In this document: piece after piece, positions 39,892 to 59,253 of the stretch
How the letters are laid out: each line of letters begins with the position of its first letter
Numbering within the stretch: position 1 is the stretch's first letter
DNA from: Escherichia phage EJP2
Strand: one strand, 5' to 3'
Sequence record: OQ411014.1
DNA length: 64,000 nucleotides
Program-made: the position numbers and the translations under genes
The notes under the pieces: generated by a model
Told to the model about the DNA's origin: nothing
The model's input: only the letters and a program-made list of their open reading frames with translations
Database searches by the model: none

Positions 39892-41001
39892 ATGAAAAAG
39901 TATTTGGTTGGTGGTTTTGTACGCGATAAGCTACTTGGCTTACGTCCTAAAGACAAAGATTATGTCTTGGTAGGAGCGACCCCGCGTGATATTCAGTACT
40001 TAAAAAGTATTGGATATGAGCAGGTTGGTGCAGACTTCCCTGTGTTCTTGGATAAGGACGGCAATGAGCACGCACTTGCCCGTACTGAACGCAAGGTGTC
40101 TGATGGCTATAATGGCTTTGAAGTGAATACACAAGGTGTAACGCTTCAGGAAGACTTGTATCGTCGTGATTTGACCATCAATGCGATTGCCTTTGACCCA
40201 CAGTTAAAGGTACACGTAGACCCATATGGTGGCAAAGAAGACCTAAAGAACAAAGTACTGCGACATGTATCTGAACATTTTGAAGAAGATCCAGTACGTA
40301 TTCTGCGTATCGCTCGTTTCAGTGCACGTTATTCGGACTTTACAGTACATGAAAGTACTGAATCGTTGATTCGCCGTATGATCAATCGTGGCGATATTTC
40401 TGAATTGACTAAAGAGCGAGTGTACGTAGAATTCGAGAAAGCATTCTCCGAAGAAGAGCCAGTTATCTTCCTGGAGAAGCTATCCAAATGGGGAGCCATG
40501 AGTAAGTTGATTCCTGGTAATCCTGAAAGTACTTACAAGACTATTGAATACATTAGTTCCAATTGTACTTTAGCGTATAAGGATTTTTACTTGTGGGCTG
40601 AACTAATTGGTTCTAATGAAGTACAAAAAGATGGAGTCTTTGGTCAGGTCAAGCTACCATCGCGTTACTCTAAGTTCAGTGCGTATGTATGCAAGCACGC
40701 GGATAGTATCAAGAATTTCCGTAAGAGCACCCCAGAAGAAATGGTAAATATTCTTACTGAGATGAGCGTAAAGAACAACGGTGGTGAAGAGTACTTGTAC
40801 AAAGTACTGGAATACTTTATCCTACGTAAAGAGATTGATTTGGACTTAGAAGATTTGATTATTCGAGTTTATGATCGCTTTGAGAATACGGTCATTGGTA
40901 ATATTGATCAGATGCTTAAAGATGGAACTATCACTTCACGTGAAATTCCTTCTTTTGTGAAAGAGAAGCGAATCGCTGAGGTGGAAAAAATCTTCAAATA
41001 A
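39892..41001 (+). CDS. CCA-adding tRNA nucleotidyltransferase / poly(A) polymerase family
   Basis: GGFVRDKLLG, DKDYV and RRDLTINA head-domain motifs; 369 aa. Confidence 0.8.
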   Translation: MKKYLVGGFVRDKLLGLRPKDKDYVLVGATPRDIQYLKSIGYEQVGADFPVFLDKDGNEHALARTERKVSDGYNGFEVNTQGVTLQEDLYRRDLTINAIAFDPQLKVHVDPYGGKEDLKNKVLRHVSEHFEEDPVRILRIARFSARYSDFTVHESTESLIRRMINRGDISELTKERVYVEFEKAFSEEEPVIFLEKLSKWGAMSKLIPGNPESTYKTIEYISSNCTLAYKDFYLWAELIGSNEVQKDGVFGQVKLPSRYSKFSAYVCKHADSIKNFRKSTPEEMVNILTEMSVKNNGGEEYLYKVLEYFILRKEIDLDLEDLIIRVYDRFENTVIGNIDQMLKDGTITSREIPSFVKEKRIAEVEKIFK

Positions 41002-41002
41002 A

Positions 41003-41032
41003 TTGAGATATTTTCGAAAAAAGTGATATATT
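41003..41032 (+). promoter_or_regulatory. sigma70-like promoter TTGAGA-N18-TATATT with TGA
   Basis: same architecture as the family, weaker -10. Confidence 0.4.
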
Positions 41033-41064
41033 ATAAGTATCTGAGATATGTAAGAGATAAAAAT

Positions 41065-41742
41065 ATGCGATATACATGCGGGATAATATTTTATCGAAAC
41101 GGTCAGATACTTGTAGGTCACACGACTGGTCAGAGTCATTGGGATTTACCGAAAGGTAAGACTGAAGGTTCTGAGACATTCAAGGAAGCGGCAGTTCGTG
41201 AATGCTATGAAGAAACTGGATACAGTATTGATGAACGAGATTTACTGTACTTAGGTGATGTATCATACAGAAAGGGAAAGCGTTTAGTACTGTTCTTTTA
41301 CACAGCCAAGACGAAACCAATTGCTGAAGAGTTGCAATGTATCAGTACTTACACGAATAAGTACGGTATTGTACGTCCAGAGTTGGACAAATTCAAGTAC
41401 ATAGACATTGAGGACTGTGAACTCTACTTGACTGAACGGATGTGTGATAGTATAATCAAAGCTATTACACAATTTGATAAAAAGACAAATAAAAAGGAAG
41501 ATAATATGAAAGTTGTAATTTATGGTCGTAAAGCTGGTTGTAAGTGGTGTACTACTGCTAAAGAAGTTTGTGAAACTAACTCAATTGATTTTGATTTCAT
41601 TGATTTAGATGAAGCTGGTATTGATGGTGCTAAACTCGCTGAAATTTGTGGCACTCCAGTACGTACTGTTCCACAAATTTTCGTTGACGATCAACACATT
41701 GGTGGTTGTACTGAGTTTATTTCGCACCTATCCAAAATGTAA
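41065..41742 (+). CDS. Nudix hydrolase fused in frame to a glutaredoxin/NrdH-like domain
   Basis: perfect Nudix box GKTEGSETFKEAAVRECYEETG; C-terminal MKVVIYGRKAGCKWC (CxxC) preceded by internal RBS aggaag at 41494 and ATG 41506, no stop between the domains. Confidence 0.6.
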   Translation: MRYTCGIIFYRNGQILVGHTTGQSHWDLPKGKTEGSETFKEAAVRECYEETGYSIDERDLLYLGDVSYRKGKRLVLFFYTAKTKPIAEELQCISTYTNKYGIVRPELDKFKYIDIEDCELYLTERMCDSIIKAITQFDKKTNKKEDNMKVVIYGRKAGCKWCTTAKEVCETNSIDFDFIDLDEAGIDGAKLAEICGTPVRTVPQIFVDDQHIGGCTEFISHLSKM

Positions 41743-48051: not shown

Positions 48052-48741
48052 ATGGCAAATATGATAGATAAATATGGAGTCCCACTTCCTGGTGGTGGTC
48101 GCATTTCCATGAAGCAACCTAAAGCGAAATATAAGTTTCGTGTTATCTTCTTTGGCTTTGGTGTCGGGGATGATGGCAACTACATTACTGTAGATACAAA
48201 TACTGTTGGTGCAGTTCATGTGGAACACGAAGATGTAACCGTACATAGCTATAACAGTTCTGCACACTATAAAGGTAAGTACACTTGGAGTCCAATCGAA
48301 GTTGCTTTTCGTGATAGCGTTGGTAACATGAGTGCGAAAGCAGTTTACAACCAAATGCGTAAAGAATTTAACTACTACACCCAAGAATCCCGTATGACTG
48401 ACTCACAGTTCAAGTTCGAAATGTGGATTCAAGAGCTAGACGGTTCTAACAGTGAATCCACTACCAACCTATTCGAAGGTACTCTAAGTACTTGGGTATG
48501 TCAGGGTTGCTTTATTTCTGACTCTAACTTCGGTGAATGGGATTACTCCAGCAGTGATGCACAAGTAATCACCATGACTGTACGACCAGATGGTTGTGCA
48601 AAACTAGGTCCAGAAGGTCAACCATTCGGTGATGAAGTTTCCGGTAACGGTACTCCAGAAAACGCTACTAGTATTAGTGGTGCACAAACTGCAATTTCAA
48701 GTACTTCTATTACTGATAGTAACTTCTACAACGAACAATAA
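48052..48741 (+). CDS. putative tail tube protein (paralog 1)
   Basis: directly downstream of sheath; MANMIDKYGVPLPGGGRISMKQPKAKYKFRVI paralogous to the next ORF. Confidence 0.5.
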   Translation: MANMIDKYGVPLPGGGRISMKQPKAKYKFRVIFFGFGVGDDGNYITVDTNTVGAVHVEHEDVTVHSYNSSAHYKGKYTWSPIEVAFRDSVGNMSAKAVYNQMRKEFNYYTQESRMTDSQFKFEMWIQELDGSNSESTTNLFEGTLSTWVCQGCFISDSNFGEWDYSSSDAQVITMTVRPDGCAKLGPEGQPFGDEVSGNGTPENATSISGAQTAISSTSITDSNFYNEQ

Positions 48742-48768
48742 TAATAAAAGTACTTTTCAGTACTACAA

Positions 48769-48800
48769 AAGCCTTGGAAAAACATTCCGAGGCTTTTTTT
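48769..48800 (+). terminator. hairpin agccttgg/ccgaggct followed by T7
   Basis: 8-bp stem with one G-U pair. Confidence 0.6.
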
Positions 48801-48846
48801 ATGCTAAATAAATGATAATATGTTTTTTACAGATAGAGGTTACTTT

Positions 48847-49620
48847 ATGGCAAATATGTTAGACAAATACGGTGTACCGCTACCTAGTGGAGCTAACCGT
48901 ACAATGCTCCAGCCAAAAGCAAAGTATAAATTCAGAGTAATTGTATACAATTTCGGTACTGAGATTGATGAACGTGATCACATCGCACTGGACGTTGATG
49001 CAGTAGATAGACCAAGCATTACATTCAAAACACATAAGGTGTTTCAGTTCACCACGAACTCATCCTATGTTGGTAGCCACGACTGGAACCCAATTAAATT
49101 AACAATTCGTGATTCTATTGGTAACAAAAGTACTAAAGCGATTTCACGTCAATTACAAAAACAACTTGACTTTCAACGTAGGATTACGGCAAAATCAGAA
49201 CAGGATTATTCAGGCTATAAGTTCGGCATGATTATCCAAATGCTAAATGGTAGAAATAGTGATGATTCTCTTGACAATCTAGGAAGAGACACTATAATTG
49301 ATGCTGCAACTGCTGCAACCAATAATGGTGGTTTAGTTAACGCTGTGGATCAATTCCTAGGTGGAAGCAACTACAACAGTGCTGGAGTTATGGAGTACTT
49401 TGTATGTACTGGTTGTATCATAACTGATACCGACTATGATTCACTGGACTACTCTTCAAGTGCACCATTGAAAATATCCCTTACTATTAAGCCGGATACT
49501 GTACATCAATTTGATTCAATTGAGGAAATGTATAAAACCCGCATATCTTCTTTACTACCAGATGGTGTGAATCAGGGTCTTGATATACTTGATCGCATAA
49601 TCGGTTCAGTAGGTTTATAA
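48847..49620 (+). CDS. putative tail tube protein (paralog 2)
   Basis: start at ATG 48847 (agagg RBS); MANMLDKYGVPLPSGANRTMLQPKAKYKFRVI. Confidence 0.5.
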   Translation: MANMLDKYGVPLPSGANRTMLQPKAKYKFRVIVYNFGTEIDERDHIALDVDAVDRPSITFKTHKVFQFTTNSSYVGSHDWNPIKLTIRDSIGNKSTKAISRQLQKQLDFQRRITAKSEQDYSGYKFGMIIQMLNGRNSDDSLDNLGRDTIIDAATAATNNGGLVNAVDQFLGGSNYNSAGVMEYFVCTGCIITDTDYDSLDYSSSAPLKISLTIKPDTVHQFDSIEEMYKTRISSLLPDGVNQGLDILDRIIGSVGL

Positions 49621-49630
49621 GGAGAATAAT

Positions 49631-51739
<2,109 letters not shown>

Positions 51740-51764
51740 ATGAAACTACTGTTATGGAGTTATT

Positions 51765-52304
51765 ATGAATAATCTACAGAAAATTTTAACAGACAGCTTA
51801 CCAGTACTGGAATACCGCATTAAATTTGCGGTAGAGCCGTCTAAAGAGGATTTGAGTAAAATCCACAATCGCTTGAACGACCGATATGATGCAATTGAGA
51901 TTTCCCCTCTAATGAAATCAATCTTCCAAACACGCCCACTTGAGTTTTATGAACTCGATTGTGGTGAAATTTGGTGGTTAGATTTCAAATGTAATCGTGG
52001 TGTTCAACCTGAAGTACTACTATATGAAATCGGCAATATGCTCAAATGGTCTGAAGCACTATTACGTGTTCGTGGTAAATATGAGCCTATTGAAATCGAA
52101 GATGTACTGGACGATTCTGAAGAATTGGATTTTGATGAAATCGAACCAGTGATTGGTCAGCCATTTGGTGAACCCTTTGAGCCTGAAGCACAGGACATTG
52201 CGGGTCAACAACGTGCTGATGACGCAGTAAAAAATGCAAAAGAACGTTTAGGTAGATCACAGTACAGTAATTATATGTCTGCTGGTTATGGGAAAAAAGG
52301 ATAA
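51765..52304 (+). CDS. hypothetical protein
   Basis: 179-aa ORF. Confidence 0.45.
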   Translation: MNNLQKILTDSLPVLEYRIKFAVEPSKEDLSKIHNRLNDRYDAIEISPLMKSIFQTRPLEFYELDCGEIWWLDFKCNRGVQPEVLLYEIGNMLKWSEALLRVRGKYEPIEIEDVLDDSEELDFDEIEPVIGQPFGEPFEPEAQDIAGQQRADDAVKNAKERLGRSQYSNYMSAGYGKKG

Positions 52305-52307
52305 TAT

Positions 52308-52865
52308 ATGAGTATGTTACACGAACTATTTGAAGATGCCGAACCACTGAATGAGCGTCCTTATTCACGCACTCAATCAGCAATTGACTCCGCTAAGGGT
52401 GGAGTCAAGGGTATGTTCGGCTCCGGTCAAGTTGAGCAAGGAGCACGTGAAGCTGGTGATGTTGCTAACCGTCTATGGGTTGATTTCAAACGTATGATTG
52501 GTCGCAAATACGGAAAAGCTCAATCATCAGTACCTTTTGCTGATGTAGAAGCATTTTTCAAAACTAACCAACTAGATACCAAAGGTCTAGGTTCTAATGC
52601 TAATCGTACATTCACCCCTAAAGATGTAGGTAATGCACTATTAGCAGCAGCACGTGAGCAAGTCACTGCTGAGTATCGTCAATCACCTCCAGAACAAGCC
52701 CCTAACGCACCACAGGCGGCTCCTGCACAGGCACAAAGCGATTCTGAATCAGCACCAGTACCACCACAATCTAACCCCGCAGGACAAGCTGTAGACGGCT
52801 TAGAAGCTAAGATTGCATCACTTTCTAAAGCAGAACGTGACCAATTACTAGCAATGCTAGGGTAA
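52308..52865 (+). CDS. hypothetical protein with Ala/Pro/Gln-rich C-terminus
   Basis: 185-aa ORF. Confidence 0.45.
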   Translation: MSMLHELFEDAEPLNERPYSRTQSAIDSAKGGVKGMFGSGQVEQGAREAGDVANRLWVDFKRMIGRKYGKAQSSVPFADVEAFFKTNQLDTKGLGSNANRTFTPKDVGNALLAAAREQVTAEYRQSPPEQAPNAPQAAPAQAQSDSESAPVPPQSNPAGQAVDGLEAKIASLSKAERDQLLAMLG

Positions 52866-52879
52866 TAGGAGAATAAACC

Positions 52880-54358
52880 ATGATCAATATTTTCGGTACT
52901 AATAATGTAGTACCTAACGGCTACATTTATAAGACACACAAAGGTTCCGAATACATTTTTCTAGAAGGATTCTGGTTCAACCATTCTAATCTAAAGATGG
53001 TTGACCCAGCCAAAACTACTAAAATGAATGAGGCAGCATCCGCACAAATCTTGAAACATAATAGTACTGGGAAGCAAATGATTGGTGAATCTTTTTCCTT
53101 TACTGGTAATGATTATGTATACTTAGGTGAAGGTCGATTCACTGAAAACGGCGTTATAGTCGAATCTTCAGTACTGACTGAACTTATGGCAGATGATGAT
53201 CGCGTATATAAGGTATCCCGTGAAACCCTAAACAAAGAATGGGCTACATTGAACTTCTATATCCTTCCACCACACGCAGAAGATGTTTCTATCCCTGCTG
53301 GTCTTGAAGTTGAAGGGTTCAAATTCGTTCCTAAAGGACAACGTTTCATTGATATGCAAACTGGTCGGCCTGCATCCCCTGAAATGACCCGTAAATTACA
53401 TGCTGCTGGTATGCGTTTAGCGAGACAACAAGCAACATCCAACCAACTAGTTCCAATCAACTCAACTCTAAAGATGGGTAATGCTGTTGCTACTTGGAAT
53501 GGTAAAGATTTTTGTGATAATGATGGCAACGTTGTAGTACCAGCAGCACAAGCATCTAATATTTTCTCCAAATATAAGCAATTTGTACACGCAAACCCTA
53601 ATGATTTCCAGAGTTTAGTACAAGACACTAGCAAAGAACAACGTTTTGGTGTTGGTGAAAAGCCTGTTCAGAAACAACCTGTTACTGAAGCTGATGAAGA
53701 AGGTAAAGGTTTAGTTGTTCCTGACGGATATACTATTGTTTCTAAGTCACAAATCCCGTATTATAAAAAGAATGGTGAGTGGATTTCTACTAAAACTAAG
53801 AAACCAATCAACTCATCTGCTGCTAAGAGTGTTGAACGTGCTGCACAAGTCCGTATTGCTGAATACAACAAGTCCGCACCAGTGAAAATTGGTGAAGAAT
53901 GGACTTCAAGTAAAGGTAAAACTTATACTTATGTAGGTGATGACCGATTTATCAGTACTGATGGAAAGCTAATCCCTAAAGATTCTGCTAAAAAGATTCT
54001 TGCAAAACTCGAAGGTGAGCGTAAAGTAGATACTGATAGTCCTTTGGATACAAAAGACAAAGAGCCTAAAGTTCAAGATGCACCAAAACAAGATGCACCG
54101 AAGAGTGAACCAGAAGTTCAGAGTCAAGAAGAACCAAAACAAGATGCACCGAAGAGTGAACCAACACCTTCCAGTACTGAAAACAGTGAACTGTCATCTT
54201 TAGCTGATGCTATCAAACAACATCCTAAAGCGAGAAAGATCACAGTACTGATGACTCGCGGTGACAAGGTATCATTACTAGCAGCGGATTTGATTCTAGC
54301 TGGTAAGGAACAAGATGCTATCAAGATTTTGAAAGCATTAAATAGTAATGATGAATAA
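52880..54358 (+). CDS. hypothetical protein with C-terminal PKQDAPKSEP repeats
   Basis: 492-aa ORF; internal direct DNA repeat. Confidence 0.5.
   Translation: MINIFGTNNVVPNGYIYKTHKGSEYIFLEGFWFNHSNLKMVDPAKTTKMNEAASAQILKHNSTGKQMIGESFSFTGNDYVYLGEGRFTENGVIVESSVLTELMADDDRVYKVSRETLNKEWATLNFYILPPHAEDVSIPAGLEVEGFKFVPKGQRFIDMQTGRPASPEMTRKLHAAGMRLARQQATSNQLVPINSTLKMGNAVATWNGKDFCDNDGNVVVPAAQASNIFSKYKQFVHANPNDFQSLVQDTSKEQRFGVGEKPVQKQPVTEADEEGKGLVVPDGYTIVSKSQIPYYKKNGEWISTKTKKPINSSAAKSVERAAQVRIAEYNKSAPVKIGEEWTSSKGKTYTYVGDDRFISTDGKLIPKDSAKKILAKLEGERKVDTDSPLDTKDKEPKVQDAPKQDAPKSEPEVQSQEEPKQDAPKSEPTPSSTENSELSSLADAIKQHPKARKITVLMTRGDKVSLLAADLILAGKEQDAIKILKALNSNDE
54082..54163 (+). repeat. perfect about 31-bp direct repeat (accaaaacaagatgcaccgaagagtgaacca) present twice, 51 bp apart
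   Basis: copies at 54082-54112 and 54133-54163 inside the CDS. Confidence 0.8.
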
Positions 54359-54376
54359 TTTATAAGGATTTATGAA

Positions 54377-55351
54377 ATGAAAAACAAAATCAATGAAGCA
54401 TCTATCAAACTTGATGTGAACGGTCTTGAGTCATCTGACTTCGATACCTTATCCCGTATGCTTGCTCTAGCTGGTCAAGCTGAAACACAGGGTGGTAATA
54501 ACCCTGGTATGTCCGAACTACCAAAAATGAAAGCATTCGACTTTGATGCATTTGGTGGTGACGAAGCTGAAGTTGAACCAATTCCTTCTGCTGATCCATT
54601 TGGAGAGCCGGAGGCTGAACTTTCCGTCGAACCAATGGCAGAACCTGAAGTTGGTTCTGAAGAAGAACTTTCTCTTGACTTAGATGGTTCACCGTCACTA
54701 GAATCTGGTGATGAGTTCGAAGAAGATGATTTCGATTTCGGACGTATGTCTGAACTAGCTGGTCTAGGTGAAAGTGTTTCTCTAGCAACTTCAGAAGACG
54801 AAGCTGGTGAAGGTGAAGTAGAAGATGCTGATGAACTTGCCAAAGATGAAGAAGATGCAGCAGCAGAAGAACTTTCTGAAAAACTACTCCCTGACCTATC
54901 TCTAGATGAAGATGCTGAAGCACGATCTGACGATGGTGATCGTCACCACGTTGTGGATTCAAAAGAACATGGTCCATTCAGTACTGAACGTGAAGCTGTT
55001 CATGATGCAATGCGTGTAACCAATGGTACTGAATTCGAACATTTTGCTATCATCCCAGGAAAAGACGGTTATTACTGGAGACGTAACCTACAAGAAGGTT
55101 TCGATAACGAACCAGAACCAGAAGTTGTTGATATGGATGGTATTGAAAATAGTCGTCATGAATTCAAACGTGTTCCAGGAACTGCACTTGGTGATAACCC
55201 ACTAAAAGAATCTGAAGATGAAGACTCAGATAAGTGTGACAAATGCCACGAAGATCCATGTGAGTGTTCGGACGAGAAACTAGATGAAGATGTATCTGAC
55301 ATTCTAGAGAGCATCAATGCTCGCTACAATGAATACATCAAAGGTCTATAA
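54377..55351 (+). CDS. highly acidic low-complexity protein with C-terminal Cys cluster
   Basis: long D/E-rich tracts; CDKCHEDPCEC near the C-terminus; 324 aa. Confidence 0.5.
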   Translation: MKNKINEASIKLDVNGLESSDFDTLSRMLALAGQAETQGGNNPGMSELPKMKAFDFDAFGGDEAEVEPIPSADPFGEPEAELSVEPMAEPEVGSEEELSLDLDGSPSLESGDEFEEDDFDFGRMSELAGLGESVSLATSEDEAGEGEVEDADELAKDEEDAAAEELSEKLLPDLSLDEDAEARSDDGDRHHVVDSKEHGPFSTEREAVHDAMRVTNGTEFEHFAIIPGKDGYYWRRNLQEGFDNEPEPEVVDMDGIENSRHEFKRVPGTALGDNPLKESEDEDSDKCDKCHEDPCECSDEKLDEDVSDILESINARYNEYIKGL

Positions 55352-55352
55352 T

Positions 55353-55748
55353 ATGGATTATCGGTCATTAGTAGAATCTCTTGACAATATAATGCATGGT
55401 GAAGAGGGTTCGGATGAACTCTCTCCACAAGAATTACTAAAAGGGATTGTTCAATCACTACAGGGAATCACAAACTGTATCAGTGCTGAAGAAATCCAAG
55501 ATTATGATGCATTGATAGAAGTTTTGAAAGATGTGAAAAATATGCTTGACGAAGTTCAAGATACCCAATATAATGAACCCCATCAAGACGAGACAGTTGA
55601 AGAAGACCTTCTACCTCTTGATAGTATTGAAGGTAACGAGTTAGGTACTAAAGGTATGGGGCCAACAATCGACAGTGCTGGTAAACAGAACTACGCGAAG
55701 AAAGACGGCAAATCATACGCAGAGCGGAAAGGCTTCGTAGGTCCATAA
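55353..55748 (+). CDS. hypothetical acidic protein
   Basis: start at ATG 55353 immediately after upstream stop. Confidence 0.45.
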   Translation: MDYRSLVESLDNIMHGEEGSDELSPQELLKGIVQSLQGITNCISAEEIQDYDALIEVLKDVKNMLDEVQDTQYNEPHQDETVEEDLLPLDSIEGNELGTKGMGPTIDSAGKQNYAKKDGKSYAERKGFVGP

Positions 55749-55749
55749 T

Positions 55750-56130
55750 ATGATGATGATACCGCCAACTGATCGTACTGACTCCCAGATGGAAGTACTT
55801 TCTAAAATACGGTCAGTACAAGTGGAAAAATCTGACTTAACCGACCGTTTAGTACTGAAGTCTATCTTTGAAAATTACAGATCCGGTTCGGGTATGAGAT
55901 TGAGTAAATTTGGTAAAGAGATGTGCATTGAGCATGAACTCTATGAGTTTGCTAAGTTTAATATCCCTAAAGGAACTAAGAAATCAGTACTGTTTATAAC
56001 GCTTGACAGATTATGCAAAGAGCCGTATTATGTAGAAGGTTTCGATGTGTTTCTGTCGGATGCACAAGTAATAACAGAACTGACATTTTGTTGTGATGAT
56101 TTTGAAAAATTGATTAAACTTTATTTGTGA
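55750..56130 (+). CDS. hypothetical protein
   Basis: 126-aa ORF. Confidence 0.45.
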   Translation: MMMIPPTDRTDSQMEVLSKIRSVQVEKSDLTDRLVLKSIFENYRSGSGMRLSKFGKEMCIEHELYEFAKFNIPKGTKKSVLFITLDRLCKEPYYVEGFDVFLSDAQVITELTFCCDDFEKLIKLYL

Positions 56131-56448: not shown

Positions 56449-57780
56449 ATGTCTACTAACAACGACCTGCTGAACATCAAACTGTCCCCAAAACAAGCTA
56501 AAGCTGCTATGGAAGCTGCTGACCTGTGCCGCGATAGTCTGATGATTTGGGGTGCACCTGGTATCGGTAAATCCGCAATTGCACGTCAATACGCTGATGA
56601 GAAATATCCACTGCGTAAAGACAACGTTGGTCGTATCGCATCTCTGAACAATCGTATTGCTCAAGAAACTGATGCTGATGAGAAGAAAGCACTAGAACGT
56701 GAACTGGCTTCACTAGAATCCAAACTGATTGATCAAGATACCAACTTCATTGACTTCCGTCTGTCTCAGATTGAACCAACTGACTTACGTGGTATCCCAG
56801 TTCCAGAAAAACTGTTCCGTTCTACTAACGGTAACCTGTTGAAAGAATCTGAACTGGCTGAAGCGAAAGAGTACGTAGCTGAAACCGCAGTAACTTGGGC
56901 TGCTCCTAAAGTACTGAAACTGGCTGACGATTGGAAAGGTGTGATTCTGTTTGATGAAATCAACTCCGCAATGCCGATTGTACAAGCAGCGTCCTACCAG
57001 CTAATTCTGGACCGTTGTGTTGGTGAAATGAAACTACCATCTACTGCACTGATTCTTGCAGCAGGTAACCGTGACGGTGACGGCGGTGTAACTTTCACCC
57101 TAGCTACTCCACTGCGTGACCGTATGACTCACATTGAAGTCACTCCGAATCACACTGACTGGATTGATGACTATGCAATCAACAAGCGTCTGAACGCAGC
57201 GACTGTAGCATTCATCAACAACACTGGTAGCAAGTACTTCAACACGCTAGACCCGAACAACCCAAGCCATGCTGGTGGTACTTCTCCACGCTCTTGGGAA
57301 AAAGTAGCCGAGTACGAAGATCTGAATCAAAAAGGTCTGTTGACTAAAGAAATCTACCGTGCTATGATTGCTGGACGTGTTACCGATGGTATCGCAGTTG
57401 AGTACATCGAGTTTGTTGAGAACGTTGCATCTCTACCAGATACCATGAAGATTCTGACTGGTGAGATCAAAGAGATTGATAAAGACTTGGATATTTCTTC
57501 CAACTACTTCATCACTCTGAACCTAGTGTACAAGATTATCGCACTCTTCGAAGAGAAGAATGAGAAACGTCTAAGTGCAGAAGAGTGGAACCAAATGGCG
57601 AATAACTTCGTAGTGTTCCTAGACCACAACTTCTCTGCAACACAAGGTGAGTTGGCAGTACTAGCAATTCGTAACATTACTATCGCAGGTGTTACTATGT
57701 CTTACAACGATGTTCCAGCGTTCCAGCCGTTCGTAAAACGCTACATGGGTCTAGTTCGTAAAGCACGTGCACTGAAGTAA
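56449..57780 (+). CDS. MoxR-type AAA+ ATPase (AAA_5-like)
   Basis: Walker A GAPGIGKS; Walker B VILFDEINSA; LILAAGNRDG sensor; LATPLRDRM; CTG-rich codon usage unlike neighbouring genes. Confidence 0.8.
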   Translation: MSTNNDLLNIKLSPKQAKAAMEAADLCRDSLMIWGAPGIGKSAIARQYADEKYPLRKDNVGRIASLNNRIAQETDADEKKALERELASLESKLIDQDTNFIDFRLSQIEPTDLRGIPVPEKLFRSTNGNLLKESELAEAKEYVAETAVTWAAPKVLKLADDWKGVILFDEINSAMPIVQAASYQLILDRCVGEMKLPSTALILAAGNRDGDGGVTFTLATPLRDRMTHIEVTPNHTDWIDDYAINKRLNAATVAFINNTGSKYFNTLDPNNPSHAGGTSPRSWEKVAEYEDLNQKGLLTKEIYRAMIAGRVTDGIAVEYIEFVENVASLPDTMKILTGEIKEIDKDLDISSNYFITLNLVYKIIALFEEKNEKRLSAEEWNQMANNFVVFLDHNFSATQGELAVLAIRNITIAGVTMSYNDVPAFQPFVKRYMGLVRKARALK

Positions 57781-57840: not shown

Positions 57841-59253
57841 ATGAGTAAATTCAATAATTTGTCTACTAAACTTCCCGATTCAGTTTTGCAAGAATGTAAT
57901 GAACGTATGGTACTAGCTCGTACTTCACTGATGCTCTCTAAACCATTCTTTGGTGTTTTGGCATCTCGTCTTCGCCCAGTACCGAATGATACTTGGTGTC
58001 GTACGATGGCAGTAGATGGCAAACACTTGTACTATAACGTAGAATTCGTTATGGGTTTACAAGACCAAACTAAACGTGCACAATACGAAGAAGCACTAAA
58101 AGAATCAATCGACGATATCAGTACTGAACAAATCAATGACGTACTGAACGGTCTATCTGACCAGAACCTGATTGCTGTACTGTGTCATGAAATTCTTCAC
58201 TGTGCTTATGACCACTTCTTGCGTCGTGGTATGCGTGACCCACAACTGTTCAACAAAGCTGCTGACTATGCAATCAACCAGATTCTAGTTCGTGAAAACA
58301 TTGGTAAGATTCAGTCTTCTTGGTTGTACGACAAGAAATATGACGGAATGACCGCTGAAGAAATCTATGTTCTTCTTGAAGAAGAGAAGAAGAAAGAAGA
58401 GCAAGAAAACGGTGGTGGTGATGGCGACGGTGATGGTTCCGATGACCAAGATGGCGATGGTGACGGAAACAGCAACGGTGGTGGTAAGAAGAAAGGTAAG
58501 AAAGGTAAAGGCGGCACAATTGACCAGCATGACGTACCACAAGAAGGTGATGGTGAAGTAAGTGATGCCAAGCGTCGTGAATATATGGAAGATTTCAAAA
58601 CTGCAATGATGAACGCAGCACGTGCTGGTGGTACTCCAGCAGAAATCGAACGTATGATTGACTCCTTCACTAAACCAAAAATCGACTGGCGTTCTAAACT
58701 ACAACGTACTATGCGTTCTTGCATGAAGTCCGATGTAATTTTCTCTAACCCAAGTCGTCGTTCTTGGAGTACGGGCTTCGGTCACAGTGGTTCTTTCTTT
58801 GGTTCTCCTATCTTCCCAGGACTGAAACCAGATGAAGATATTGATATTGCAATTGCACTTGATGCGTCAGGTTCTATCAGTAATGATATGTTGCGTGACT
58901 TCATCAGTGAAGTGATGGGAATCACCAAACAGTTCAAACAGTTCAAGATTCGTATTATGACTTTTGATACTAAGGTTTATACTGTTCGTGATTATAAAAC
59001 TGGTGAAGAGAAGAAGATTCTAGAATATCCAGTTCATGGAGGTGGTGGTACTGATTTCCAAGCAGTTTGGGATCATATGCGTGATGACAACTACCGTCCA
59101 AAACAACTCGTAATGTTCACTGATGGTGAGCCGTGGGATTCCTGGGGTGACGAAAACTATTGTAAGACTCTTTTCGTAATCCACTCCAACCCTGAAAAGA
59201 TTGCACCATTCGGTGAAACCGTACACTACGAGTACGAAGCGAAGCAACACTAA
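57841..59253 (+). CDS. HExxH metallopeptidase-like domain plus vWA domain protein (DUF2201-like architecture)
   Basis: HEILH motif; G/D and K/G low-complexity linker; MIDAS-like DASGS in IALDASGSIS; 470 aa. Confidence 0.7.
   Translation: MSKFNNLSTKLPDSVLQECNERMVLARTSLMLSKPFFGVLASRLRPVPNDTWCRTMAVDGKHLYYNVEFVMGLQDQTKRAQYEEALKESIDDISTEQINDVLNGLSDQNLIAVLCHEILHCAYDHFLRRGMRDPQLFNKAADYAINQILVRENIGKIQSSWLYDKKYDGMTAEEIYVLLEEEKKKEEQENGGGDGDGDGSDDQDGDGDGNSNGGGKKKGKKGKGGTIDQHDVPQEGDGEVSDAKRREYMEDFKTAMMNAARAGGTPAEIERMIDSFTKPKIDWRSKLQRTMRSCMKSDVIFSNPSRRSWSTGFGHSGSFFGSPIFPGLKPDEDIDIAIALDASGSISNDMLRDFISEVMGITKQFKQFKIRIMTFDTKVYTVRDYKTGEEKKILEYPVHGGGGTDFQAVWDHMRDDNYRPKQLVMFTDGEPWDSWGDENYCKTLFVIHSNPEKIAPFGETVHYEYEAKQH
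58381..58515 (+). repeat. low-complexity tract within the CDS (E/K-rich, then GDGDGDG, then G/K-rich)
   Basis: encodes EEKKKEEQENGGGDGDGDGSDDQDGDGDGNSNGGGKKKGKKGKGG. Confidence 0.8.

Follow-up and report, generated by a model that had tools for sequence, protein, structure and literature searches.

The acidic protein encoded at positions 54,377–55,351 of a 64,000-nucleotide stretch of Escherichia phage EJP2 (OQ411014.1; the whole stretch is called the window below) belongs, on the evidence of a profile search, to an already known family of jumbo-phage virion proteins, PHROG 15988. EJP2 is a Rak2-related jumbo phage, and the match to the family profile was obtained with hmmscan at E 3e-71; the family includes RaK2 gp050, CBB_213, GAP32_207, phAPEC6 gp267c and 121Q gp560, and carries the label 'virion structural protein'. 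We propose, putting the chances at about even, that this protein is an internal head protein processed by a protease and a candidate component of the inner body of 121Q and phAPEC6. Its location in the head, its cleavage, its docking partner and its inner-body or ejection role are what we infer from the patterns described below.

The gene and its ribosome-binding site were placed as follows:

54,377–55,351, plus strand: target ORF, 324 aa plus stop; its stop-free translation matches the protein given in the original prediction.
54,364–54,368, plus strand: ribosome-binding site AAGGA (Shine-Dalgarno), read from the sequence, with the ATG 8 nt downstream.

This ORF is a real gene. Its product contains 17.0% glutamate and 12.3% aspartate (95 D+E residues against 26 K+R), and the computed pI of 4.05 and net charge of about −69 confirmed the earlier description of a highly acidic protein of 324 aa. 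Among the 73 ORFs of the window it is the most acidic, with a D+E share of 29.3% against a mean of 14.6 ± 3.9, and a net charge per 100 aa of −21.3 against −3.9 ± 4.7. The term 'low-complexity', which had also been applied to it, holds for the composition only, since sharply conserved islands are present in the chain. At the DNA level we found no repeats in the gene beyond one trivial 15-nt repeat, and an origin of the acidic tract from a DNA tandem repeat was rejected on this ground.

By tblastn, 71 phage records were found to have a gene of this type, in each case as a single syntenic copy; the match covers at least 80% of the EJP2 protein in 69 of them, and the homologues form 103 clusters. 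The PHROG 15988 orthologues resemble the EJP2 protein in module order and acidity (net charge within the family ranges from −42 to −87), and RaK2 gp050, CBB_213, GAP32_207, 121Q gp560 and phAPEC6 gp267c occupy the same slot, between ORF049-like and ORF051-like genes. The surroundings of the gene in EJP2 are:

50,727–56,130, plus strand: conserved cassette of a gp4-like head-completion gene, ORF046-, ORF047-, ORF048- and ORF049-like genes, the target gene, and ORF051- and ORF052-like genes.
55,353–55,748, plus strand: downstream neighbour, an acidic 131-aa orthologue of RaK2 ORF051, with the N-terminus MDYRSLVE↓S (here and below, ↓ marks a candidate cleavage position).

The conserved order of sheath, tubes, gp4, small ORFs, target gene, ORF051, ORF052 and MoxR ATPase was found, and the gene lies in a late structural module that is conserved in relatives, in line with the structural region named in the original prediction. 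For the ORF047-like neighbour, the predicted structure was an alpha/beta domain of generic ferredoxin-like type that matched HPPK/S6 only weakly, and this fold was uninformative as a guide to a head or neck location of the cassette.

Mass spectrometry (MS) shows that the orthologues of three relatives are virion proteins. In purified virions, RaK2 gp050 was detected with 1 peptide (5.3% coverage; PMC3622015 Table S3), CBB_213 with 5 peptides (18.9% coverage; PMC5259590 Table 4) and phAPEC6 gp267c with 1 peptide (4.9% coverage; PMC7247149 Table 1); ORF051 orthologues were MS-detected in RaK2 and CBB. The supplements for RaK2, CBB and PA5oct give only counts and coverage, and the identity of the detected peptide was derived by coverage arithmetic. 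It would correspond to residues 12–27 near the N-terminus: in phAPEC6 no other peptide qualifies, and in RaK2 this is the sole fully tryptic peptide among three candidates. The low peptide counts in two of the three proteomes speak against an inner-body component of very high abundance, but tryptic sites are almost lacking in the acidic region. Neither the Sharanji paper nor the EJP2 paper reports proteomics or inner-body results for this gene.

The AF2 model (mean pLDDT 60, pTM 0.27, 126 residues below 50) predicted a chain that is mostly disordered and carries a few short conserved modules:

54,377–54,487, plus strand: N-module, aa 1–37, MKNKINE↓ASIKLDVNGLESSDFDTLSRMLALAGQAE, containing the first RMxxLAG helix.
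54,389–54,400, plus strand: candidate T4 gp21-type prohead-protease site I5-N6-E7↓A8 (L/I-x-E↓).
54,488–54,727, plus strand: acidic disordered linker 1, aa 38–117, net charge about −23, pLDDT <50, Uversky margin +0.28.
54,728–54,775, plus strand: second RMxxLAG motif, aa 118–133, DFDFGRMSELAGLGES, AF2 helix 121–127.
54,776–54,877, plus strand: acidic disordered linker 2, aa 134–167, from AF2 and the disorder margin.
54,878–54,916, plus strand: conserved E-x-LLPDLSLDE island, aa 168–180, with invariant P172, D173 and L174.
54,959–55,096, plus strand: small beta-alpha-beta-beta domain, aa 195–240, GPF.TE..A...NG..F....G.YW.R..E, pLDDT >90.
55,112–55,207, plus strand: conserved PEP...DGIENSRH...PGTALGDNPL island, aa 246–277, with G272 and N274 invariant.
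55,235–55,267, plus strand: Cys knuckle C287-x2-C290-H-x3-C295-x-C297 (with H291), a lineage-specific insertion.
55,277–55,348, plus strand: C-terminal amphipathic helix, aa 301–324, AF2 helix 306–323, pLDDT about 88.

Conservation is highest in the N-module, whose identity to orthologues is 73–92% over this region alone, in comparison to 33–59% over the full length. Its invariant residues are E7, A8, D21, L31, A32 and G33, and a helix was predicted for residues 19–37 (pLDDT about 80). The module is common to the target and distant proteins, and in the window, searched in all six frames, the strict motif occurred in the target only; its reading as a generic targeting signal of several proteins per phage was rejected, since there is one per genome. 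In the family comparison, the linkers vary in length while their acidity is conserved (linker 1 spans 80–135 aa with 24–36% D+E). The second RMxxLAG motif is followed by a conserved (I/L)-x-E132↓S, the E-x-LLPDLSLDE island includes an L-x-E site in L176-D177-E178, and the C-terminal helix holds the invariant I309-L310-E311↓S312. The beta-alpha-beta-beta domain (invariant G199, P200, T215, G217, F223, W234, R236 and E240) recurs in unrelated contexts in P0145, P0171 and P0129, and had no fold match in the PDB by Foldseek. The 'ALGDNP' of the following island is also present in P0140 and P0169, and 'SGDNAL' in PA5oct gp203.

Searches with the whole protein gave no family in the Pfam (E ≤ 0.1) and NCBIfam profiles and no match in the PDB by sequence, where the sole entry listed, a plant bHLH factor, had an E-value of 0.43. 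Foldseek with the AF2 model returned nothing better than E 5 from the PDB and two family members only from BFVD. The Cys/His cluster, originally described as ending the protein, is present; however, it lies about 27 residues before the C-terminus and is not conserved in orthologues. In comparison to these, the knuckle is inserted in the EJP2-type protein and its closest relatives; the segment is gapped in more than 50% of the homologues, most of which have 0–1 Cys. A very similar knuckle is found in P0169, a distant relative (CHKCDCDPCEC), and perhaps also in PA5oct gp203. Being gapped in most orthologues and yet recurring in distant relatives, the knuckle is an optional mini-module and not a family-defining one.

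The proposed processing was deduced from the N-terminus. The T4 gp21 protease cleaves after L/I-x-E, and the targeting propeptides are N-terminal and of 10 residues (PMC9026906). In 71 sequences of the family E7 and A8 are invariant and P3 is I, L or M in 100%; the sequence from A8 after the candidate cut is ASIKLDVNGLESSDFDTLSR. A gp21/Peptidase_S77 protease is encoded in a T4-order head module in all relatives examined, the EJP2 head module being outside the 64-kb window. The MCPs of the lineage have a conserved L-x-E↓(S/N)A at residues about 42–50, a position that fits the reported maturation from 42.2 to 37 kDa (PMC5646251). The strict N-terminal [LI]xE[AS] was found in 2 of the 73 window ORFs, namely the target and its ORF051-like neighbour. 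In RaK2 the signature is carried by six of 45 CDSs (MCP, scaffold, the gp67- and gp68-position proteins, the target orthologue and ORF051) and by none of the 39 CDSs for sheath, tube, baseplate, hub, portal, gp4 and enzymes. Seven of the 13 conserved Glu columns of the family have a hydrophobic P3, and further conserved (I/L/V)-x-E sites are present at E132, E168, E178, E240, E282 and E311, in a protein so rich in Glu that about 6 (L/I)-x-E triplets are expected by chance.

The second line of evidence comes from the two RMxxLAG helices, which resemble the conserved C-terminal tail of the lineage scaffold. From RaK2 to PA5oct and Atu_ph07, the scaffold C-termini end in LxxL(A/S)GI-K(K). A regular expression for the LAG motif gave 3 matches in the 17,917 aa of window ORFs, 2 of them in the target, and the likeness to the scaffold tail spans 6–8 residues. 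This suggests that the target probably uses the binding partner of the scaffold, that is the capsid inner face or the scaffold core. The gp22-like scaffold (RaK2 ORF093, 121Q gp602, PA5oct gp153) has in common with the target both the N-terminal L-x-E↓S and the helix motif phi-x-x-L-(A/S)-G-(I/L/Q). However, the scaffold is long, helical, near-neutral and encoded next to the MCP, whereas the target is predicted to be disordered; the motif stands at the extreme C-terminus of the scaffold, followed by Lys, whereas the target has it twice, internally, with acidic residues after it; and the target orthologues are kept in virions, whereas a gp22-like scaffold would be expected to be absent from mature ones. 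Since a separate gp22-like gene adjoins the MCP gene, the target is not the main scaffold. Of the two options that the original prediction had left open, that of an internal head or scaffold-type protein is supported by the virion MS of orthologues and by an N-terminal signature otherwise found only in head shell and core proteins. Taken as sequence features, this signature and the scaffold-like helices point to the head interior.

On this basis we can outline how the protein may behave. During prohead assembly it would dock on the inner face of the capsid shell or on the scaffold core, using two short amphipathic helical elements, one being the N-module together with its RMxxLAG motif and the other the second RMxxLAG motif. 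A gp21-type protease would cut at I-N-E7↓A8, taking off the first seven residues, and may also cut at the conserved (I/L)-x-E sites E132, E178 and E311. The mature DNA-filled head would keep at least the part with the N-module. The polyanionic disordered linkers, in which composition and not sequence is conserved, would be excluded from the packed DNA by charge, and the protein would in consequence collect in a phase made up of protein alone, for instance the axial inner body of 121Q and phAPEC6. It may also exit with the DNA at ejection.

Alternatively, the protein could be a head-completion or neck protein that joins the head after DNA filling, along with the gp4-like protein and at the portal or neck; its conserved modules would then bind portal or neck proteins and its acidic tails project into the channel or the surroundings. 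We find this reading unlikely. The gene lies next to tail-tube and head-completion genes, and in RaK2 the head module is about 55 kb away. The linkage to the gp4-like gene is kept from RaK2-like phages to a distant metagenomic phage, where a reduced cassette (gp4, 046, 047, target-like, 051) is found, and is matched by position in PA5oct, while another distant relative adjoins a T4 gp15-like tail terminator. With the distant relatives as tblastn queries, no cultured phage outside the Rak2 group was found; P0169 matched other phages through its N-terminal DUF7249 domain only. The low MS peptide counts would also fit a low-copy component. However, gene order informs only weakly on location in mosaic structural regions, and, the target and its neighbour apart, the N-terminal (L/I)-x-E↓(A/S) marks only proteins of the prohead shell and core; gp4, the neck protein, sheath, tubes and portal lack it.

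It is likewise improbable, to a similar degree, that the protein is an auxiliary scaffold or core protein which builds or sizes the T=28 prohead, is fragmented at the (I/L)-x-E sites and is largely expelled, leaving only traces or fragments in virions. Several conserved (I/L/V)-x-E sites would suit such a fate, as T4 gp22, gp67 and gp68 are likewise cut into fragments (PMC9026906), and the same can be said of the scaffold-like LAG motifs, of an acidity like that of the gp68-position protein (26–33% D+E) and of the single peptide detected in RaK2 and in phAPEC6. On the other hand, three independent virion proteomes contain orthologues (CBB_213 with 5 peptides), the chain is predicted to be disordered and not coiled-coil, and a dedicated gp22-like scaffold and gp67- and gp68-position proteins already adjoin the MCP.

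The extreme negative charge, which proved to be conserved across the family, had led the original prediction to leave open a DNA-mimic anti-restriction protein as its other option. In its virion-borne version, a polyanionic decoy would be packaged, ejected with the genome and titrate restriction enzymes or other DNA-binding defence proteins, and packaging would deliver it ahead of gene expression, as for T4 IPI* (PMC9026906). We consider this very unlikely, and the anti-restriction proposal was not borne out, as no Ocr, ArdA or other family was matched in Pfam or NCBIfam, neither sequence nor fold searches of the PDB (the latter by Foldseek) returned a mimic, and the gene is a late structural one. 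Ocr and ArdA fold into compact dimers that reproduce B-DNA in shape and in the spacing of charges, and are products of early or leading-region genes. The target has in common with Ocr (T7 gp0.3) and ArdA a strong net negative charge, but shows no fold or sequence similarity to them, and its chain is mostly disordered in the AF2 model instead of forming a rigid DNA-shaped array. Anti-defence genes typically have a patchy distribution and evolve fast; the target belongs to the core genes of the structural module, is found once in each relative and has docking-like motifs that are highly conserved, a pattern which argues against a DNA mimic. A looser role as a polyanion decoy after ejection may still apply.

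A spurious or non-functional ORF arising from GA-rich sequence, which the compositional bias and long overlapping antisense ORFs might suggest, has a negligible probability and is already refuted by the 103 homologous clusters with invariant residues, the conserved synteny, the ribosome-binding site and the MS peptides of orthologues in three relatives.

For an internal head protein, a close parallel is offered by T4 IPI-III, Alt, gp67 and gp68, which also have a short N-terminal peptide ending in (L/I)-x-E↓A; a gp21-family protease is encoded by T4 and by the relatives of EJP2 examined, and the target orthologues, too, are in virions. The T4 IPs are small, basic and folded, whereas the target is large, extremely acidic and mostly disordered, and searches of Pfam, PHROG and NCBIfam gave no homology to the IPs, Alt, gp67 or gp68, so that the likeness is one of function only. 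The conserved I-x-E site near the C-terminus of the target is reminiscent of Alt, from which both ends are trimmed (PMC9026906). By its proposed role, the target may be likened to the inner-body and ejection proteins of phiKZ and SPN3US, which are packaged in the head and cut after x-x-E by a gp21-related protease (PMC9026906).

PA5oct gp203, an MS-verified structural protein, occupies the same slot after the head-completion gene. It has 498 aa, a net charge of −68, a Cys cluster, a C-terminal helix ending in KFKG and the motifs ILRLAGV, EISKLAGIS and SGDNAL. However, BLASTP between the two proteins gave E 4.7, hhalign covered the C-terminal 33 columns only (E 0.012, probability 3.5%), and searching the database with gp203 gave just 2 proteins, not enough to build a profile. 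Homology of the target and gp203 has no statistical support, and we treat gp203 as an analogue by position, whose homology is no more than possible.

The heads of Rak2/121Q-group jumbo phages hold about 350 kb of packaged DNA, arranged around an axial inner body. In 121Q and phAPEC6 a phiKZ-like inner body has been seen by bubblegram only (PMC5646251; PMC7247149), and phAPEC6 proteins were reported to lack sequence similarity to the phiKZ inner-body proteins (PMC7247149). We offer, as a speculation with a rather small chance of being right, that the target family and the acidic ORF051 orthologue, perhaps with the rest of the gp4-linked cassette, form the inner body of 121Q/phAPEC6-type phages as a disordered polyanionic phase, kept out of the packed genome electrostatically, anchored by LAG helices and matured by a gp21-type protease; at ejection it might leave before the DNA or together with it. 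If true, this inner body would be built on a different principle from that of phiKZ and be unrelated to it in sequence.

For the annotation of EJP2, the 'hypothetical protein' can be renamed 'virion protein, probable internal head protein', and the tempting but unsupported 'DNA mimic' label is removed. In the relatives examined, the N-terminal (L/I)-x-E↓(A/S) signature, which is of the kind known from the T4 capsid-targeting sequence (CTS), sets the proteins of the head shell and core apart from those of the tail and baseplate and from enzymes. It also flags the target and its neighbour, and this rule could give a short list of candidates for inner-body proteins. The T4 CTS has already been used for loading foreign proteins into heads; if the N-terminal peptide or the LAG helices of the target truly direct proteins to the capsid, they could load foreign proteins into the heads of jumbo phages.

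The reading frame at 54377-55351 (+) is open throughout and encodes a product of 324 aa, with a ribosome-binding site (AAGGA, + strand) read in the sequence 8 nt 5ʹ of its ATG. In agreement with the original prediction, the product is dominated by acidic residues: 55 Glu and 40 Asp (29.3%) compared with 26 Lys and Arg, which corresponds to a computed net charge of about -69 and a pI of 4.05. This acidity is a real outlier, since the protein is the most acidic of the 73 substantial ORFs of the window, both in D+E content (29.3% versus 14.6 +/- 3.9) and in net charge per 100 aa (-21.3 versus -3.9 +/- 4.7). A DNA repeat as its origin was ruled out by a repeat check of the DNA, and a spurious ORF was excluded by conservation and by the proteomics of orthologues. 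Two antisense ORFs within the gene, 54405-54977 (-) of 190 aa and 54475-54843 (-) of 122 aa, are Leu/His/Gln- or Ser-rich and resemble by-products of GAN-rich sense codons, not genes. The predicted Cys/His cluster is present (C287, C290, H291, C295, C297), but the alignment shows gaps at this segment for over half of the homologues, and the majority of homologues have at most one Cys.

The window comes from a Rak2-related jumbo phage, whose nearest record in the phage collection was Erwinia phage Hallingskeid (~77% nucleotide identity, with 61% of a 10-kb probe covered). The EJP2 genome (349,185 bp; 471 of 540 ORFs hypothetical) was described without virion proteomics (PMC10213699). The acidic protein matched PHROG 15988, 'virion structural protein' (E 3e-71), and had no family match in Pfam or NCBIfam. 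All 71 phage records found by tblastn, with one copy each, were Rak2/121Q/GAP32/CBB-type jumbo phages; 103 homologue clusters were obtained from 5.8 billion proteins, and searching 1.84 billion representatives exhaustively with a profile found only 87. The gene is an orthologue in an already known virion-protein family. Its gene order is fully kept in Hallingskeid, RaK2, CBB and phAPEC6: neck protein, dNMP kinase, sheath, three tube paralogues, gp4-like head completion gene, ORF046- to ORF049-like genes, the acidic protein (RaK2 ORF050), ORF051- and ORF052-like genes, MoxR ATPase and DUF2201 metallopeptidase-VWA protein.

Genes around the acidic protein
39892-41742 (+), CCA-adding tRNA nucleotidyltransferase, then NUDIX-glutaredoxin fusion, upstream of the neck and sheath genes
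48052-50725 (+), three consecutive tail-tube paralogues (229, 266 and 364 aa), conserved in all relatives
51765-52304, ORF047-like protein, 100% identical to EJP02_206
52308-52865 (+), 185 aa, 'Hsp70 heat shock protein' by annotation (phrog_16152, Hallingskeid and RaK2 records)
52880-54358 (+), ORF049-like virion protein, 492 aa
55353-55748 (+), RaK2 ORF051 orthologue, 131 aa, 22% D+E
56449-57780 and 57841-59253 (+), MoxR-type AAA+ ATPase, then DUF2201 putative metallopeptidase with VWA and an HEILH motif

The predicted fold of the ORF047-like protein was a generic, uninformative ferredoxin-like one. The name 'Hsp70' looks like a propagated misannotation, because the protein had no Pfam HSP70 match and its C-terminal half is Pro/Gln/Ala-rich and of low complexity; its first residues (MSMLHE...) are similar to those of the RaK2 prohead protease (MSMLRE...). 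In the ORF049-like protein, a short motif, 'G-x-x-Y-x-(F/Y)-(L/V)-(E/G)-...-(R)F', occurs three times (as GSEYIFLEGFWF, as GNDYVYLGEGRF and as GKTYTYVGDDRF), and a Lys/Pro/Asp-rich repeat with KQDAPKSEP twice is found near the C-terminus. For the RaK2 tube, the original RaK2 paper proposed other proteins, gp106w/gp107w. The MoxR ATPase, whose phAPEC6 orthologue was detected in virions by mass spectrometry, and the DUF2201-VWA protein can be likened to N4 gp24/gp25; the 'HNH endonuclease' label of 57841-59253 (+) in PHROGs and several GenBank records was unsupported by Pfam matches.

Mass spectrometry of purified virions has identified orthologues of the acidic protein in three phages: CBB_213 with 5 peptides (18.9% coverage), RaK2 gp050 with 1 (5.3%) and phAPEC6 gp267c with 1 (4.9%). 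No peptide-level data were found for RaK2, CBB and PA5oct; the detected peptides were assigned by fitting the reported coverage to candidate tryptic peptides, not from published spectra. The phAPEC6 coverage fits one tryptic peptide only, residues 12-27 (IDIAGLESDDLETLSR), and in RaK2 the orthologous peptide is the sole fully tryptic fit, while two peptides with one missed cleavage fit too. On this coverage arithmetic, the conserved N-module (aa 1-37) appears to be present in mature particles. The low peptide counts, as well as the ancient association with gp4- and gp15-like genes, would suit a component of the neck or of head completion that joins after packaging; we consider this unlikely, since the N-terminal signature of the protein is specific to head proteins.

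The head genes of Rak2-type phages follow the T4 order: portal, small ORF, acidic ORF, gp21-type protease (Peptidase_S77), gp22-like scaffold and gp23-like MCP. The MCPs conserve L-x-E↓(S/N)A (↓, candidate cut site) at residues ~42-50, and a cut there would remove ~5 kDa, which matches the maturation of the 121Q MCP from 42.2 to 37 kDa (PMC5646251). T4 gp21 cleaves after L/I-x-E, as first seen at a Glu-Ala bond (PMC9026906). The T4-order head module and the MCP site fitting the 121Q maturation make a T4-like specificity of the Rak2-type protease plausible. All phages examined had (L/I)-x-E-(S/A) within the first ten residues of their MCP, scaffold and two small head-core-position proteins; the 10-residue capsid-targeting sequence of T4 has the same layout. 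The acidic protein starts with MKNKINE↓AS, where E7 and A8 are invariant and P3 is always I, L or M (71 sequences). Among the 73 window ORFs, only this protein and the next gene, the ORF051 orthologue (MDYRSLVE↓S), carry such a signature; the mechanical call of the latter starts at 55317 and overlaps the acidic gene, and the conserved start is ATG 55353, two bases past the stop codon. In an independent control of 45 annotated RaK2 CDSs, the carriers were exactly six (MCP, scaffold, ORF090 and ORF091 at the gp67 and gp68 positions, ORF050 and ORF051), and none of the 39 sheath, tube, gp4, baseplate, hub, tape-measure-like, portal and enzyme CDSs had it. That an N-terminal gp21-type signature separates head proteins from the rest is new.

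Of the 13 Glu columns conserved in the family, seven also conserve a hydrophobic P3, among them E132, E178 and, close to the C-terminus, the invariant I-x-E311↓S; the candidate sites at the two ends recall the trimming of both termini of T4 Alt. The many conserved x-E sites also favor an auxiliary scaffold or core protein that is mostly degraded and expelled, but this is unlikely, since orthologues were detected in the virions of three phages and dedicated scaffold genes exist. Thus, from the predicted internal head or scaffold role, the virion and internal-head part is favored by the proteomes and the head-type signature, and the role of principal scaffold is not.

The family alignment A1 (71 sequences) and an AlphaFold2 model (mean pLDDT 60, pTM 0.27) agree on a predicted beads-on-a-string architecture, a new reading of this family.

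Predicted modules of the acidic protein (alignment and AlphaFold2, unless indicated)
aa 1-37, N-module, with helix 19-37
aa 38-117, acidic disordered linker 1
aa 121-127, second short helix
aa 134-167, acidic linker 2
aa 168-180, E-x-LLPDLSLDE island
aa 195-240, small beta-alpha-beta-beta domain (pLDDT above 90)
aa 246-277, PEP...ALGDNPL island
between this island and the C-terminal helix, optional Cys knuckle (alignment)
aa 306-323, C-terminal helix

Linker 1 is between 80 and 135 aa long in family members, yet its D+E content stays at 24-36%, and the charge-hydropathy margin places the protein on the disordered side. Among the 60 of 72 records listed, identity reaches 73-92% in the N-module taken alone, compared with 33-59% over the whole protein, and the core of the module, LSRMLALAGQ, is repeated as GRMSELAGLG at aa 122-131. 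Foldseek with the model gave no PDB match better than E 5, and in BFVD two family members only.

The scaffold C-termini of other phages are a model for docking to shell or core. The gp22-like scaffolds of a super-clade (loci L005-L011: RaK2, 121Q, CBB, fHe-Yen9-04, Vibrio phage 2.275.O, PA5oct and Atu_ph07) share a conserved C-terminal 'LxxL(A/S)GI-K(K)' tail, which reads EELRRLAGIK in PA5oct, DLKRLAGIKK in Atu_ph07, LTKIAGIRK in 2.275.O and EELSILSGIIKK in RaK2. It is the same kind of motif as the RMxxLAG-type (LAG) motif found twice in the acidic protein, and the LAG-motif expression had 3 matches in the 17,917 aa of window ORFs, 2 of them in this protein. By analogy, the LAG motif probably forms a helix that docks to the shell or core. 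This sharing with the scaffold tail is new as well; we found no published description of the scaffold tail, MCP site or N-terminal head signatures of the super-clade in the literature examined. A DNA mimic or polyanion decoy, as in the predicted anti-restriction role, is very improbable, as the chain is predicted to be disordered, resembled neither Ocr nor ArdA nor any PDB entry in sequence or fold searches, and is encoded by a single-copy core structural gene of a late module, with slowly evolving candidate docking motifs.

The module order is kept in distant relatives, which often have extra N-terminal domains, so that the N-module is internal there, with its (L/I)-N-E-A opening still kept. 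In P0169 (locus L012, 8833-10431), from a much more distant phage and in the equivalent slot after a gp4-like gene, an N-terminal DUF7249 domain is present, and a Cys knuckle (CHKCDCDPCEC) like that of the acidic protein immediately precedes the N-module. T4-like cyanophages and many coliphages have DUF7249 on its own (165 phage records), and P0169 suggests that the acidic module-bearing chain can act as a carrier for added domains. No cultured phages with distant relatives were found outside the Rak2 group. PA5oct gp203 resembles the acidic protein in its slot, net charge (-68), short motifs and status as an MS-verified structural protein; their sequence similarity is without statistical support, and therefore gp203 was taken as a positional analogue only.

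We give an even chance to a protein that is incorporated into the prohead and trimmed by the gp21-type protease, with the N-module part retained and the linkers excluded from DNA. The LAG helices would bring it into the prohead, where the protease would cut at E7↓A8 and possibly at further sites, and at least the part bearing the N-module would be kept. The polyanionic disordered linkers would be kept out of the condensed DNA by charge, and the protein would therefore collect in a protein-only region such as an inner body; it may exit with the DNA. Bubblegrams of 121Q and phAPEC6 revealed an inner body like that of phiKZ, measuring 91 x 18 nm (PMC5646251, PMC7247149), whose proteins are reportedly unrelated to those of the phiKZ inner body (PMC7247149). 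Both phages encode an orthologue of the acidic protein; that the family contributes a component to this inner body in 121Q-type phages is conceivable but, in our estimate, less likely than not. The signature together with the LAG motif makes this family and its downstream neighbour concrete candidates for internal-head or inner-body proteins.
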